From: Escherichia coli
Lineage (GTDB): Bacteria > Pseudomonadota > Gammaproteobacteria > Enterobacterales > Enterobacteriaceae
Length of the DNA: 64,000 bases
Reading direction: 5' to 3' (one strand)
NCBI RefSeq assembly: GCF_030013205.1
Contig: NZ_CP122648.1
The notes below the pieces were generated by a model. The model worked only from the letters and a program-made list of their open reading frames with translations. It did not search any database and was not told the origin of the DNA. Below, piece by piece: positions 6,229 to 52,659 of this stretch. Position 1 is the first letter of the stretch, and each line of letters starts with the position of its first letter. A program made the position numbers and the translations under genes.

Positions 6229-9119
<2,891 letters not shown>

Positions 9120-9378
9120 CGGATTTTATCCTGTTATCAGTAGGGTAGATGTAGTTGTTATCAGTCGACGTGACGGAAAAATGCCGATGCTGAAACGGAA
9201 TTAAGAAACCGGTTTCACAAAATCATGAATAGTTGTCACTAAATAAGCAAGAGAGTTAATTGTTCATTTTTTATATTTGTGAAACCGGTCACCTGAATAT
9301 TTTTCCCGCCGATTGCGCAAGGACAATCGGCAAACGGTGCAGTACACTGCGTTGATTGCGTGTAAAGGGATGAAAATG

Positions 9379-10389
9379 ATGACGACGATGCTGGAAGTGG
9401 CGAAGCGCGCCGGGGTTTCAAAAGCGACCGTTTCCCGCGTGCTTTCAGGTAATGGCTACGTCAGCCAGGAGACTAAAGATCGCGTGTTTCAGGCGGTAGA
9501 AGAGAGCGGTTACCGCCCAAACTTGCTGGCGCGCAATCTGTCGGCGAAGAGTACTCAGACGCTGGGGCTGGTCGTGACCAACACGCTTTACCACGGCATT
9601 TATTTTAGTGAATTACTCTTTCATGCCGCGCGAATGGCGGAAGAGAAAGGGCGACAGTTGCTATTGGCAGATGGTAAACACAGCGCCGAAGAAGAGCGCC
9701 AGGCGATTCAGTATCTGCTGGATTTGCGCTGCGACGCCATTATGATTTACCCGCGTTTTTTAAGCGTGGATGAGATTGATGACATCATTGACGCACACAG
9801 TCAGCCGATAATGGTGCTTAATCGCCGCCTGCGCAAAAACAGCAGCCATAGCGTCTGGTGCGATCATAAACAGACCAGCTTTAACGCCGTGGCAGAGTTG
9901 ATAAACGCCGGACATCAGGAGATTGCTTTCCTTACCGGCTCGATGGATTCTCCCACCAGCATTGAACGTCTTGCCGGGTATAAAGACGCGCTGGCGCAGC
10001 ATAGTATTGCGCTCAATGAAAAACTTATCGCTAACGGTAAATGGACGCCCGCCAGCGGGGCCGAAGGGGTAGAAACGTTGCTCGAACGTGGGGCTAAATT
10101 TAGCGCGTTAGTTGCCAGTAACGACGATATGGCGATAGGTGCGATGAAAGCGTTACACGAGCGCGGCGTAGCGGTGCCAGAGCAGGTGTCAGTTATCGGA
10201 TTCGATGATATCGCCATTGCCCCCTATATCGTTCCGGCGCTCTCCAGCGTAAAAATTCCGGTGACTGAGATGATTCAGGAAATTATTGGACGGCTGATTT
10301 TTATGCTCGATGGTGGGGATTTCTCACCGCCGAAAACCTTCAGCGGAAAACTGATCCGCCGCGGCTCCCTCATTGCTCTTTCGCAATAA
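9379..10389 (+). CDS. ascG: LacI/GalR-family repressor AscG
   Basis: HTH MTTMLEVAKRAGVSKATVSRVLSG; divergent from ascFB. Start is ambiguous (ATGs at 9370/9376/9379; ORF track begins at a TTG at 9313). Confidence 0.85.
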   Translation: MTTMLEVAKRAGVSKATVSRVLSGNGYVSQETKDRVFQAVEESGYRPNLLARNLSAKSTQTLGLVVTNTLYHGIYFSELLFHAARMAEEKGRQLLLADGKHSAEEERQAIQYLLDLRCDAIMIYPRFLSVDEIDDIIDAHSQPIMVLNRRLRKNSSHSVWCDHKQTSFNAVAELINAGHQEIAFLTGSMDSPTSIERLAGYKDALAQHSIALNEKLIANGKWTPASGAEGVETLLERGAKFSALVASNDDMAIGAMKALHERGVAVPEQVSVIGFDDIAIAPYIVPALSSVKIPVTEMIQEIIGRLIFMLDGGDFSPPKTFSGKLIRRGSLIALSQ

Positions 10390-10537
10390 ACATTGTCATC
10401 ACATGTCATCGTCACTAGTGTCGATGACATCGTTTTTCCTGCATTACATAATTTAATTTCTTTAAATAACAGTAAATTAAAAACTGGCATGATTTGTGAA
10501 TGTATCGGCGCATTAACTGTCATTGCTGGAGAATTTG

Positions 10538-11065
10538 ATGAACCGTTTCATCATTGCTGACGCGAGTAAATGTATTGGTTGCCGTACCTGTGAAGTGGCG
10601 TGCGTGGTTTCTCATCAGGAGAATCAGGACTGTGCATCGCTGACCCCGGAAACTTTTTTACCGCGAATCCATGTCATTAAAGGTGTGAACATTTCTACGG
10701 CAACAGTCTGCCGTCAGTGTGAAGATGCACCGTGCGCTAACGTCTGCCCAAATGGTGCTATCAGCCGTGATAAAGGGTTTGTTCATGTGATGCAGGAACG
10801 TTGTATTGGTTGCAAAACCTGCGTTGTGGCTTGCCCGTATGGCGCGATGGAAGTGGTGGTACGTCCAGTGATTCGCAACAGCGGCGCAGGGCTTAACGTA
10901 CGGGCTGACAAAGCCGAAGCCAATAAATGCGACCTGTGCAACCATCGTGAAGACGGCCCGGCGTGTATGGCGGCTTGCCCGACCCATGCGCTGATTTGTG
11001 TCGATCGTAATAAACTTGAACAACTGAGCGCAGAAAAACGTCGCCGTACGGCGCTGATGTTCTAA
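10538..11065 (+). CDS. hydN: Electron-transport ferredoxin-like protein HydN
   Basis: Multiple CxxCxxCxxxCP 4Fe-4S motifs; [15 protein letters not shown] start; precedes hypF. Confidence 0.88.
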
Positions 11066-11217
11066 AAATCTTACAGAACTGTTCTGGCATCAAAGGAATT
11101 CCCGGAAATATTCGTAGAATACGGAGCGGGCGGTATCGCCGACCTGTGACTGCCGGATACGACGCTGTCGTGTCCGGCTGGGCGGGTTACGCAATTCATG
11201 ATGGCGGGAATAACTCA

Positions 11218-13458
11218 ATGGCAAAAAACATATCTTGCGGTGTCCAACTGCGTATTCGTGGCAAAGTGCAGGGCGTCGGTTTTCGTCCGTTTGTCTGGCA
11301 GCTGTCACAGCAATTAAATCTTCACGGCGATGTCTGTAATGACGGCGATGGCGTAGAAGTCCGGCTGCTGGAAGACCCGGAAACGTTTCTTGTGCAGTTG
11401 CATCAGCACTGCCCGCCGCTGGCGCGTATTGATAGCGTCGAGCGTGAGCCGTTTATCTGGTCACAACTGCCCACCGAGTTCACTATCCGTCAGAGCACAG
11501 GCGGAGTCATGAATACGCAAATTGTTCCCGATGCCGCGACTTGTCCTGCCTGTCTTGCTGAAATGAATACCCCGGGCGAGCGGCGTTATCGTTATCCGTT
11601 TATCAACTGTACCCACTGCGGCCCACGTTTCACCATTATTCGCGCGATGCCTTACGACCGCCCGTTTACCGTGATGGCGGCGTTTCCGCTGTGTCCGGCC
11701 TGTGACAAAGAATATCGCGACCCGCTCGATCGTCGCTTCCACGCCCAGCCGGTGGCCTGCCCGGAGTGTGGCCCCCATCTTGAATGGGTAAGTCATGGTG
11801 AACATGCAGAACAAGAGGCGGCATTACAGGCAGCTATCGCACAGTTAAAAATGGGCAACATTGTCGCCATCAAAGGGATTGGCGGATTTCATCTCGCCTG
11901 CGATGCGCGTAACAGTAACGCGGTGGCGACACTGCGGGCGCGCAAACATCGCCCGGCGAAACCGCTGGCGGTTATGTTGCCAGTGGCAGAAGGTTTACCA
12001 GACGCTGCCCGTCAGTTGCTTACCACACCCGCCGCGCCGATTGTGCTGGTGGATAAAAAATATGTACCTGAGCTTTGTGATGATATCGCCCCTGGCCTTA
12101 ACGAAGTCGGGGTAATGTTGCCTGCGAACCCGCTCCAGCATTTGCTGTTACAGGAACTGCAATGCCCGCTGGTGATGACCTCCGGTAACCTGAGCGGTAA
12201 ACCACCGGCTATCAGCAACGAACAGGCGCTGGCGGATTTGCAGGGCATTGCCGACGGATTCTTGATACATAACCGCGACATCGTGCAGCGGATGGATGAT
12301 TCGGTGGTGCGCGAAAGCGGCGAAATGCTGCGCCGTTCGCGGGGGTATGTGCCGGATGCGCTGGCTTTGCCTCCGGGTTTTAAAAATGTTCCGCCTGTGC
12401 TGTGTCTCGGCGCGGATCTGAAAAACACCTTCTGCCTGGTGCGCGGCGAACAAGCGGTGTTGAGTCAGCATCTGGGCGATTTAAGTGACGATGGCATCCA
12501 GATGCAGTGGCGCGAAGCGTTACGCCTGATGCAAAACATCTACGATTTTACCCCGCAATACGTTGTGCATGACGTGCATCCGGGCTATGTCTCCAGCCAG
12601 TGGGCGCGCGAAATGAATCTGCCGACGCAAACGGTGCTGCATCATCATGCTCATGCGGCGGCGTGTCTGGCAGAACATCACTGGCCACTGGATGGCGGTG
12701 ATGTCATTGCGTTGACGCTCGACGGTATCGGTATGGGGGAGAACGGCACTTTATGGGGCGGCGAGTGCCTGCGGGTGAACTATCGCGAATGCCAGCACCT
12801 GGGCGGCTTGCCTGCAGTGGCGCTTGCTGGGGGCGATTTGGCGGCGAAGCAGCCGTGGCGTAACCTGCTGGCGCAGTGCCTGCGCTTTGTGCCGGAGTGG
12901 CAGAATTACCCTGAAACGGCAAGTGTGCAACAGCAAAACTGGAGCGTGCTGGCGCGGGCCATTGAGCGTGGAATTAACGCGCCGCTGGCGTCATCGTGTG
13001 GGCGTTTGTTCGATGCTGTGGCGGCGGCACTGGGCTGTGCGCCAGCCACGTTAAGCTATGAAGGTGAAGCGGCTTGTGCTCTGGAGGCGCTCGCAGCTTC
13101 ATGCGACGGAGTGACGCATCCGGTGACGATACCGCTGGTGGACAATCAACTGGATCTCGCCACTTTCTGGCAGCAGTGGCTGAACTGGCAGGCACCGGTT
13201 AATCAACGCGCGTGGGCGTTTCATGATGCGCTGGCGCAGGGGTTTGCCGCGTTGATGCGTGAGCAGGCCACGATGCGCGGTATCACTACGCTGGTATTTA
13301 GCGGTGGGGTTATTCATAACCGATTGCTGCGTACACGCCTGGCGCATTATCTCGCTGATTTCACATTACTCTTTCCGCAGAGTTTACCGGCGGGTGATGG
13401 CGGCTTGTCTCTGGGGCAGGGGGTTATTGCTGCGGCGCGCATCCTGCATGCTGCATAG
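11218..13458 (+). CDS. hypF: Carbamoyltransferase HypF ([NiFe] hydrogenase maturation)
   Basis: Acylphosphatase domain, two CxxC-x18-CxxC zinc fingers, YrdC and Kae1-like regions; start MAKNISCGV; ORF-track start 11146 is an extension. Confidence 0.9.
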
Positions 13459-16152: not shown

Positions 16153-16168
16153 TGCAGATTGCGCGCCA
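16153..16168 (-). promoter_or_regulatory. Sigma54 (-24/-12) promoter of norVW: TGGCGCGCAATCTGCA on minus strand
   Basis: Matches TGGCAC-N5-TTGCA architecture, correctly placed between NorR sites and norV. Confidence 0.6.
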
Positions 16169-16223
16169 GTTTTTTATCTAATTGATTTTTATGTATAAAT
16201 TAATTCATGCTCATTAATGAGTA

Positions 16224-44466: not shown

Positions 44467-44822
44467 GCAATAGAAAGATTCCTGTTATTTGTTTATGTCG
44501 ATACATTACCCAATGGAAATAGTCACTTTTTTCTACCCTAACATACTGAGAATCTGAGGCAACCCCTGATGGCAAATGTGGCATGAATATTGATGTGAGC
44601 AAATCGCCGGAATTTCCCATGATATAAGGGCTGAGAGCAAATCGAGAAAAGTTGATATTTTTTGTCAAAGATAGCAAAAAAACGCCTGAATATTGTGGTT
44701 TCAGGCGAATAATGCAACAGAGTGTCAGTGTAGATCACCACAAAATATTTGCGTGATAAAAAGCTATTTGGCGGGAATTATTTCCCTGCTGCGGGTAGTG
44801 ATATTTTTGAAAAATAACACCC

Positions 44823-45791
<969 letters not shown>

Positions 45792-47936
45792 TTAAAGTGC
45801 ACACGAGACGCAGCCTTCAATTTCAGTGCCTTCCAGCGCCATCTGACGCAGGCGGATGTAATAGAGCGTTTTGATACCTTTGCGCCAGGCGTAAATCTGC
45901 GCTTTGTTGATATCGCGAGTGGTGGCGGTATCGGGGAAAAACAGCGTCAGCGACAGCCCCTGATCGACATGGCGAGTCGCTTCCGCGTAAGTGTCGATGA
46001 TCTTTTCTGCGCCAATTTCGTAAGCGTCCTGATACAGCGCCAGATTCTCGTTAGTCATAAACGGGGCAGGGTAGTAAACGCGTCCTGTTTTGCCCTCTTT
46101 GCGTATCTCTACTTTCGCCACAATCGGATGAATACTCGACGTAGCATGGTTGATATAAGAGATAGAACCGGTTGGCGGCACCGCCTGAAGATTCTGGTTG
46201 TAAATGCCGTAGCGCATCACGTCGTCGCGCAGCTGCGCCCACATCTCACGGGTAGGTAACGTAATACCGCTACGGGTAAACAGTTCGCCAACTTTCGCCG
46301 TTTTCGGCTGCCAGTTCCCTTGCAGATATTGGCTAAAATATTCACCACTGGCATAGCGTGACTGTTTGAACCCGGCGAAGGTTTCACCGCGTTCGCGCGC
46401 CAGCAACATCGAGGTACGCAGTGCGTGCCAGGTGATGGTATAGAAATAGAGATTGGTGAAATCCAGTGCTTCCGGCGACCCATAAGCGATGCCTTCTCGC
46501 GCCAGATAGCCGTGTAAATTCATCTGCCCCAGTCCGATGGCGTGTGAGGCGGCATTTCCGGCTTCGATGGACGGCACGCTGCGGATATGACTCATATCTG
46601 ATACTGCCGTTAAACCGCGCACGGCAGTCTCTACCGTGCGGGCAAAGTCGGGGGAATCCATGGTGTGGGCAATATTCAACGAACCTAAATTGCAGGAAAT
46701 ATCATGGCCTGTGCGGGCATAGTCGAGATTCTCGTCATACTCTGAGGCGCTGTTAACCTGCAAAATTTCTGAGCAGAGATTGCTCATATTTATGCGCCCG
46801 GCGATAGGGTTAGCACGGTTAACCGTGTCTTCATACATGATGTAGGGATAGCCGGACTCAAACTGGATTTCTGCCAGTCGCTGGAAGAAATCACGGGCGT
46901 TGATGTATTTTTTGCGGATGCGTTCATTGGCAACCAGTTCGGCATAGTGTTCACTGATGGCGATATCAGCAAACGGCTTGCCATAAACCCGCTCAACGTC
47001 ATAAGGCGAAAACAGTGCCATCTGCGCATTCTCTTTTGCCAGATGGAAAGTGATATCCGGGATCACCACGCCCAGCGACAGTGTTTTAATGCGGATTTTC
47101 TCGTCGGCATTTTCCCGTTTCGTATCGAGAAAACGCAGAATATCGGGATGATGGGCATGTAAATAGACTGCCCCAGCCCCCTGACGCGCGCCGAGCTGGT
47201 TGGCATAGGAAAATGCGTCTTCCAGCATTTTCATCACCGGAATCACGCCAGATGATTGATTTTCAATACGTTTAATTGGCGCGCCCGCTTCTCGCAGATT
47301 CGACAGCAAAAATGCCACGCCGCCGCCGCGTTTCGACAGTTGCAGTGCGGAATTTACCGCCCGGCCAATCGACTCCATGTTGTCTTCAATACGCAGCAAA
47401 AAACAGGAAACCAGTTCGCCGCGCTGCTGCTTACCACAGTTGAGGAATGTCGGTGTTGCAGGCTGAAAGCGTCCTGACAGCATCTCATCGGTCAGTTGCG
47501 TCGCCAGTGTTTCATCGCCTTGTGCCAGCATCAGCGCCATCATCGTGACTCGATCGGCAAAATCTTCCAGATAACGCTTACCGTCGAATGTCTTCAACGT
47601 ATAGCTGGTGTAAAACTTCCATGCTCCGAGGAATGTCTGAAAACGAAAACCGCTGGCGTGTGCGTGGGCAAACAGCGTAATGACAAAATCGCGAGAGTAG
47701 CGGTTGAGGACGTTTTCATCATAGTAACCTTCGTTGACTAGCCAGTTCAGGCGCTGCTGCTGGCTACTGAAGGTCACACTGTTCGGACGCACATGTGTCG
47801 CCATAAAGGCGTCAACGGCCTGGCGATCTTTATCGAACTGAATGCGACCTGCGCTATCGTAAAGGTTAAGCATCGCATTCAGCGCGTGGTAATCCATCGT
47901 TTCCTGCGTCAGGCGTTCTGCGGTTGTCGTTGCCAA
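45792..47936 (-). CDS. nrdE: Class Ib ribonucleotide reductase alpha subunit NrdE
   Basis: 714 aa, C-terminal CxxC...CVSCAL. Confidence 0.93.
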
Positions 47937-51991: not shown

Positions 51992-52659
51992 GCTAATGCT
52001 CCTTAATAAAAGCGTAATGGGATGTGAATGGAGATGAAAGCAGTGGATCTCATTGCCATCTGCATTTTCGCATAGCGTATATCGCTGGCTATGACTAATC
52101 AATTAGTGAAAAATTTTTATTTAAACTGTTTTTGTAGATAAAATATTCCGTAACGGCGCGTTTTTTGTACATTGTGGATTTTTACATGCCGATATGGTTT
52201 ATTTTTAATTAAATCAATTAGATATGATTCTGCCTTTAATTACACTAATGAAAGTTTGGGGGTGAGGTAACGCTATAAGCGTAGAGAATTCGGTGTATGT
52301 CGTGACCGGGTCATTTTCAGCATTTTTTATGCCAGAAAATGTACATTGACAGCAGAAAGCACCAGTGAGGGGGGGGTTCCATTTATTCGGTTAAATTGCA
52401 TTTTTATTCATTTTTGTTTTGTCAGGCTTGCGGAATTAGCGAGCAGAGAGCGCCGCTCTGCTCACAAATAACCTAAATTACTCATCAAAATGGCTAATAT
52501 ATAATCTTGAAATTATTCTGAGAGTTTCAGAAAATAACAGCTGAAATAATCTCGCGCAGGACTGTAAATAGATTAAATTTTGTGGAAATATAATAAGTGA
52601 TCGCTTACACTACGCGACGAAATACTTTTTTGTTTTGGCGTTAAAAGGTTTTCTTTATT

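Follow-up and report, generated by a model that had tools for sequence, protein, structure and literature searches.

The sigma-54 promoter of hydN-hypF in Escherichia coli and a conserved upstream palindrome as its probable FhlA enhancer

The region described here is the 148-bp spacer between ascG and hydN of E. coli, which is the control region of hydN-hypF. It lies in a 64,000-nucleotide stretch of DNA, which was analysed as a whole and is called the window below. The 321 bases around the spacer have a match in all but one of the 5,426 complete E. coli genomes, and strain K_EC180 matches them at 100%, with ascG and hydN annotated beneath. The genes and the elements of the spacer are listed in Table 1. 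The GGAG sequence precedes the hydN ATG in every orthologue sequence tabulated, mostly in the context CTGGAGAA, and as CCGGAG or CAGGAG in some genera. Two open reading frames drawn mechanically across the spacer (10393-10560 on the plus strand and 10275-10523 on the minus strand) were rejected, as there is no evidence for them. An Rfam scan of 10250-10650 gave no match at E-values up to 1. Since the 1990s the hydN-hypF operon has been assigned to the formate regulon as a sigma-54- and FhlA-dependent member.

Table 1. Genes and sequence elements in and around the ascG-hydN spacer (window coordinates)
Feature	Position	Strand	Remarks
ascB	6229-7665	-	local gene order
ascF	7662-9119	-	local gene order
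ascG	ORF 9313-10389; annotated start 9379; stop codon TAA 10387-10389	+	RefSeq; upstream of hydN and co-directional with it
TGTCATC, direct copy of the arm motif	10394-10400	+	direct repeats; possible auxiliary activator half-site
26-bp palindrome core TGTCATCGTCA-CTAG-TGTCGATGACA	10404-10429	.	putative FhlA enhancer (UAS); centre 10416.5, about -94.5 from the predicted start
T-run CGTTTTTCC after the palindrome	10431-10439	+	with the hairpin, could be a weak ascG terminator in Escherichia
IHF-like core TAACAGTAAATTA	10467-10479	+	in A/T-rich block, at a fixed offset from -24; putative DNA-bending site
Sigma-54 -24/-12 element CTGGCATGATTTGTGAA	10484-10500	+	GG 10486-87; -12 TGA 10497-99; identical to ChIP-seq site OS26
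Predicted transcription start	10511	+	rule of PMC4591121 moved to window coordinates; 27-nt leader
hydN Shine-Dalgarno GGAG	10528-10531	+	read from sequence
hydN CDS	10538-11065	+	RefSeq
hypF	11146-13458	+	next after hydN
norW, norV	downstream of hypF	-	local gene order

An earlier note on this DNA had described a stretch with TGGCAT and TTGTGA that loosely resembles a sigma-54 promoter, and its spacing could not be confirmed by eye. Both hexamers are present, TGGCAT at 10485-10490 and TTGTGA at 10494-10499; only the span given for them, about 10486-10502, is a few bases off. The spacing is canonical. The GG and the -12 G at 10498 are ten bases apart, which is the 10-nt GG-to-G spacing of RpoN promoters (TGGCACG-N4-TTGCW). 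The element deviates from this consensus at two positions, with G for T at 10496 (position 12) and A for C at 10499 (position 15), and with the latter the -12 dinucleotide is GA and not GC. An A at the -12 C position occurs in 9 of the 186 sites of the published RpoN matrix, and the glnH and pspG ChIP-seq sites, both flagged as confirmed, are likewise without the -12 C (PMC4591121). Of 81 orthologous sequences, 29 have C here, 42 have A and 10 have T, and the -12 pentamer is ATGCA (29), GTGAA (22), ATGAA (20), GTGTA (6) or ATGTA (4). According to this distribution, the missing C is a feature of the clade and not a defect of E. coli. As the position is variable in orthologues and in published sites alike, the GA at -12 makes hydN a weak-consensus member of the RpoN promoters and not a non-member.

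The RpoN matrix of PMC7658346, built from 186 sites, was run over the 127,970 positions of the window. The hydN element scores 10.8 of 21.2 bits and is located at rank 15. By the matrix alone the match is a weak one, as the earlier note had said, and only mildly unusual (about 0.035 expected per 150-bp leader); of the formate-regulon promoters tested, none scores lower. Position and orientation both fit a promoter of hydN exactly.

The 17-mer CTGGCATGATTTGTGAA of the window is letter-identical to the ChIP-seq site OS26 of hydN in E. coli K-12, which was found with a fold-above-threshold (FAT) value of 11 and a PSSM score of 9.175, and which is experimentally confirmed according to EcoCyc (PMC4591121). 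The K-12 leader is the same at the promoter and the palindrome, and the differences are confined to the spacer. A gSELEX peak of the RpoN holoenzyme lies within the hydN/ascG spacer (PMC8743547). By the identity with a published bound site and by this peak, the element of the window is probably occupied by sigma-54. In Salmonella, hydN-hypF is bound by sigma-54, shows 13-fold sigma-54 dependence in microarrays and is grouped under FhlA; the ChIP-chip site TGGCACGATTCGTGTATA is located at the place homologous to the hydN element (PMC3844500). A review of 2025 states that formate-FhlA enhances hydN-hypF expression (PMC11841067). The reported membership of hydN-hypF in the FhlA/formate regulon, with a weak sigma-54 promoter, is borne out by these four lines of evidence. 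In view of the published ChIP-seq, gSELEX and Salmonella data and the review, the promoter half of the finding is already established knowledge. The transcription start is taken as the motif centre + 19, which places the predicted start 27 nt before hydN (PMC4591121, Table 1 footnotes).

The earlier note had also suggested discarding the element if its matrix score fell below threshold. This is a poor test, because the 10.8-bit hydN site is bound in ChIP-seq and appears in the main-text tables, whereas sites of 15.9 and 13.8 bits do not. Positions scoring above hydN include 46968-46983 (minus strand, 15.9 bits), 52319-52334 (minus strand, 13.8 bits) and 44579-44594 (plus strand). The last is the published ChIP-seq peak OA04 of the proV/ygaC region. 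The first two do not appear in the ChIP-seq tables of the main text; they may be false positives or peculiar to this strain. The hydN case indicates that matrix thresholds by themselves misjudge sigma-54 promoters.

The inverted repeat in the hydN leader is real, and it is stronger than the earlier note described: 13 of 14 positions pair, with no spacer between the arms ATGTCATCGTCACT (10403-10416) and AGTGTCGATGACAT (10417-10430). The two octamers pointed out at that time are present, TGTCATCG at 10404-10411 and CGATGACA at 10422-10429, and are not contained within 10408-10432 as had been written. The symmetry in E. coli reaches 10403-10430. The note had assigned the repeat no explicit role, and had proposed a scan for FhlA sites. 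No other palindrome with at least 13 of 14 pairs was found in the 64 kb of the window, and 0.02 are expected according to first-order Markov simulations. The second-best palindrome of the window, TATCTGCCCCGTTTTAGCGGGGCAGATA at 62542-62569, has 12 of 14 pairs, is G+C-rich and looks like a terminator hairpin. The direct copy TGTCATC at 10394-10400 has a counterpart in other genera, a moderately conserved GTCGTCA / GTCGACA block. In Klebsiella, Enterobacter and relatives (loci L040, L044, L047 and others, at about 2360-2380), the ascG stop lies within CCTGACGTCGTCAGC and abuts the palindrome; thus the end of the ascG coding sequence overlaps the second conserved GTCGTCA repeat.

Conservation was examined in 80 hydN loci from about 25 named Enterobacteriaceae genera, using 200-260 bases upstream of hydN (81 sequences). 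The core TGTCATCGTCA-N4-TG(A/T)CGATGACA, that is, TGTCATCGTCA-N4-TGWCGATGACA, is present in 80 of the 81 sequences, and the one exception carries a degenerate copy. The TGT and ACA at its flanks lay outside the search pattern and hardly vary (72-80 of 80). Variation is seen in the four central bases and in all bases beyond 10404-10429, and the spacer between palindrome and promoter is unalignable between genera. The 11-nt arms are perfectly complementary in 50 of the 80 sequences; in 28, including E. coli, 10421 is T and not A, and one pair is broken. The sigma-54 element is found in all 81 sequences, with 48-53 nt between the -24 G and the ATG.

Distances between the palindrome centre and the -24 G fall into two classes, 59.5-62.5 in 30 sequences and 69.5-72.5 in 50, and the range 63-69 is empty. 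The classes partly track phylogeny, and the class also switches between related genera (59.5 in Klebsiella versus 72.5 in Raoultella). Two classes that are one helical turn apart with an empty gap between them are what a face-of-helix constraint on an enhancer and its promoter predicts.

In most genera the gene upstream of hydN is an ascG homologue. The palindrome is kept where hycI replaces ascG as the upstream gene (Salmonella, E. albertii and Cedecea), and also in E. coli strains in which the asc operon is replaced by another island, where homology resumes at 10386-10395. Up to 726 of the 5,426 E. coli records (13%) match the query over less than 80% of its length. Two such loci were inspected (L001 and L002). 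Their hycI-hydN interval carries a small island (higB/HTH antitoxin and a DUF4259 gene) instead of the asc operon, and homology restarts just 8-17 bp upstream of the palindrome.

Judged from sequence features, the palindrome is probably an FhlA enhancer, and FhlA is the most likely ligand. An FhlA enhancer is expected roughly 80-120 bp upstream of a formate-regulon sigma-54 promoter on a fixed helical face, and the palindrome is centred at -94.5. It also shares motifs with other FhlA-dependent operons, namely the form of the fdhF dyad and the block between hyc and hyp, both of which we take to be mapped FhlA enhancers. The fdhF dyad was reportedly mapped as such by Birkmann and Bock in 1989. 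The inner dyad CGTCACTAGTGTCG of hydN and CGTCAAAACTGACG upstream of E. coli fdhF both have the form CGTCA-N4-TGWCG and are identical at 10 of 14 positions. The window contains this form a single time (0.25 expected), as does the 1.1-kb fdhF locus, and in the 80 hydN loci only one case lies outside the hydN upstream region. The fdhF dyad is located 80.5 bp from its -24 G, a whole turn beyond 70.5 and 60.5. A search for fdhF orthologues in other genera with a 139-aa pre-selenocysteine fragment led to a paralogue in three of four loci, and one look-up was empty. The single orthologue recovered (L094) has CGTCAC direct repeats only. The paralogue (L095, L096 and L097) is located immediately downstream of a xanthine/uracil permease and a 38-39-aa ORF, and no recognisable sigma-54 promoter or dyad was found in its upstream regions in these three loci. 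Thus it must be regulated differently from E. coli fdhF.

The hycA-hypA intergenic regions of seven genera were aligned and scanned with a matrix made of the hydN arms, using 300 windows as the null. The conserved block between the hyc and hyp sigma-54 promoters is CGACATGTCATTTCGACATCATCGACAT, and the best matches of the hydN-arm matrix fall inside this block in the seven genera. Klebsiella has the exact TGTCATCGACA (18.6 bits), and Enterobacter and Kluyvera have TGACATCGTCA (16.4 bits). In six of the seven regions the top score is equalled by at most 4% of the null windows; the E. coli hyc-hyp match is marginal (9.1 bits, null fraction 0.1). No scoring match of this matrix was found in the upstream regions of E. 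coli fdhF and hyfA.

The published 14-mer FhlA matrix (TGWC-RAWRAT-GWCA) gives 6.96 of 17.5 bits at the palindrome centre, which is rank 189 in the window. The central 14-mer agrees with all the strongly conserved positions of the matrix (G2, C4, T10, G11 and C13). The fdhF dyad scores 8.15 bits, and the best hyc-hyp match scores 16.05 bits. With low scores at both hydN and the fdhF dyad, the matrix discriminates poorly. The comparative data nonetheless favour an FhlA enhancer at hydN. The FhlA consensus CATTTCGTACGAAATG, in the form in which it is quoted from Leonhartsberger 2000, fits hydN only loosely, as CATCGT...ACGATG with eight extra central bases.

The low score in the published FhlA matrix also speaks for the alternative that the palindrome is the operator of another protein, such as NorR, AscG, the FhlA paralogue HyfR or a further factor, which we regard as improbable. 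The core consensus of NorR is GT-N7-AC (PMC2831303). The palindrome contains two such strings, GTCATCGTCAC and GTGTCGATGAC, and the NorR gene is only 6 kb away, but the three NorR sites in the window have the shape GTCA-N3-(T/C)GAC flanked by A/T, and the hydN arms do not. A NorR enhancer was rejected since the bare GT-N7-AC occurs twice with no sites of the GTCA-N3-TGAC type, of which three are normal. AscG is a LacI-family repressor encoded next door, and the ascG-hydN synteny is widespread; however, the ascF-ascG spacer carries the LacI-type TGTGAAACCGGTCACC, unlike the palindrome. An AscG operator of the TGnAAnCGnTTnCA type (about 14-18 bp) was rejected, because the palindrome differs from TGTGAAACCGGTCACC and is kept in genomes without ascG. 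The operator-like palindrome around TGTGAAACCGGTCACC, at 9273-9300 in the divergent ascF-ascG spacer, is presumably the AscG operator. The recurrence of the arm motif in the hyc-hyp block, within the FhlA regulon, also argues against a regulator of another system. By the analysis used here, HyfR would not be separable from FhlA.

A rho-independent terminator of ascG is still less probable as the primary role of the palindrome. In that case a hairpin AUGUCAUCG...CGAUGACAU, followed by CGUUUUUCC, would halt transcripts that arrive from ascG. The co-directional ascG ends 14 nt upstream of the palindrome and is the upstream gene in most genera, the RNA hairpin is calculated at -13.6 kcal/mol (z = -2.78, with 2 of 200 shuffles as stable), and a five-T run begins 2 nt past the stem. 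However, no terminator was found by the terminator scan, the stem is only moderately G+C-rich, and the U-tract of E. coli has few counterparts, with a T4 run after the palindrome in just 15 of 80 sequences. The stem is fixed in sequence without compensatory changes and the loop is variable, and the T at 10421 disrupts the stem in 28 of the 80 sequences. The element persists where hycI or an unrelated island takes the place of ascG, and two promoter-distance classes one helical turn apart are not required of a terminator. Given that so few sequences have the T-run, the palindrome plays at most a subordinate, local part in ascG termination. A secondary, Escherichia-specific function as a weak ascG terminator, in which the palindrome is transcribed from ascG and followed by UUUUU, is a tentative possibility.

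The reading that the -24/-12 match and the palindrome arose by chance, with hydN transcribed from a sigma-70 promoter such as ATGACA-17-CATAAT (10424-10452), can draw on the modest RpoN score at rank 15, the non-consensus GA at -12 and the one sigma-70-like site in the leader, but it is effectively refuted by the published ChIP-seq and, with gSELEX placing sigma-54 on the exact sequence, both elements conserved across genera and 0.02 such palindromes expected per window, its probability is close to nil. The sigma-70-like site was rejected, since such matches are at shuffle level (1 found versus 1.0 expected) and K-12 does not share its -10 hexamer. It has 10 of 12 matches and shares bases with the palindrome's right arm. 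This strain has CATAAT as the -10 hexamer and K-12 has CAGAAA, and thus this is a strain-level polymorphism.

The model that best explains the spacer, in which the sigma-54 promoter at 10484-10500 is served by FhlA bound to the palindrome, is considered likely as a whole. Enhancer-binding proteins drive open-complex formation at sigma-54 promoters by ATP hydrolysis. As the first step, sigma-54 RNA polymerase is held in a closed complex on 10484-10500, as the published ChIP-seq has shown in K-12 for the identical sequence. The closed complex would need an activator, and formate-activated FhlA, an enhancer-binding ATPase acting as oligomers, would bind to 10404-10429 (about -82 to -107). The half-site at 10394-10400 may contribute. 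Then the A/T-rich spacer with its IHF-like core would bend, so that FhlA would reach sigma-54 on the right helical face, as suggested by the spacing and by the parallel with norV. Finally, ATP hydrolysis by FhlA would lead to the open complex and to transcription from about 10511, the predicted start.

The A/T-rich block around the IHF-like core is conserved among the hydN sequences. The IHF consensus is WATCARNNNNTTR. The strict consensus is present at offset -20 from -24 in 18 of the 81 hydN sequences. The norV promoter in the same window (about 16170-16195, minus strand) has AATCAATTAGATA, one base further from the -24 GG than its hydN counterpart, and IHF binding at the norV promoter has been reported (PMC2831303). 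The norVW system, 6 kb away, has the same order of parts as hydN: enhancer repeats, then an A/T-rich IHF-type element abutting -24 (AATCAATTAGATAAAAAACTGG in norV and TAACAGTAAATTAAAAACTGG in hydN), and then the sigma-54 promoter. It differs in its three separate GTCA-N3-TGAC enhancers, in its activator NorR and in its signal, nitric oxide. The norV sigma-54 promoter itself (16153-16168, minus strand) is TGGCGCGCAATCTGCA in the window and CTGGCACGCAATCTGCA in published K-12, with an A-to-G change within the -24 box.

Within the formate regulon, fdhF resembles hydN in its sigma-54 -24/-12 element with TGGCAT and in an upstream dyad of the form CGTCA-N4-TGACG at whole helical turns from the -24 G (80.5 in fdhF versus 70.5 in hydN). 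In hydN, however, the dyad is extended to a 26-bp palindrome (TGTCAT...ATGACA), and the -12 element is TGAA, whereas that of E. coli fdhF is the consensus TGCA. The hycA-hypA region belongs to the same regulon, and its block contains TGTCAT and CATCG(A/T)CA words that are identical or nearly identical to the hydN arms. The 9-mer TCATCGACA is common to E. coli hyc-hyp and hydN, and in Klebsiella the common sequence is the exact 11-mer TGTCATCGACA. The repeats of hyc-hyp are for the most part direct repeats at irregular intervals, with TT inserted (CATTTCGACA), whereas hydN has a near-perfect inverted repeat. Both hyc-hyp promoters have the consensus -12 TGC, with 15.2 bits for hyc and 18.9 bits for hyp versus 10.8 bits for hydN.

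A broader reading of these likenesses is open to more doubt than the side role in ascG termination, which it includes. In this reading TGTCATCGTCA-N4-TGACGATGACA would surpass all other FhlA operators in symmetry and conservation. Its half-site YGWCATCGWCA would replace CATTTCGTACGAAATG and TGWC-N6-GWCA, the spacing to the promoter would strictly follow the helical phase (about 60, 70 or 80 bp), and in Escherichia the same DNA would also act as the RNA hairpin of an ascG terminator.

The finding is correct, and the sigma-54 promoter of hydN-hypF is documented biology. It matters little as a discovery, as the regulon membership has long been accepted and the sigma-54 occupancy of the exact sequence has been mapped genome-wide. 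The increments are a definition across genera of the likely FhlA enhancer, a nearly invariant 26-bp palindrome, and its spacing from the promoter by helical turns. Since the published FhlA matrices score the hydN site poorly, this site could improve the models of FhlA sites.
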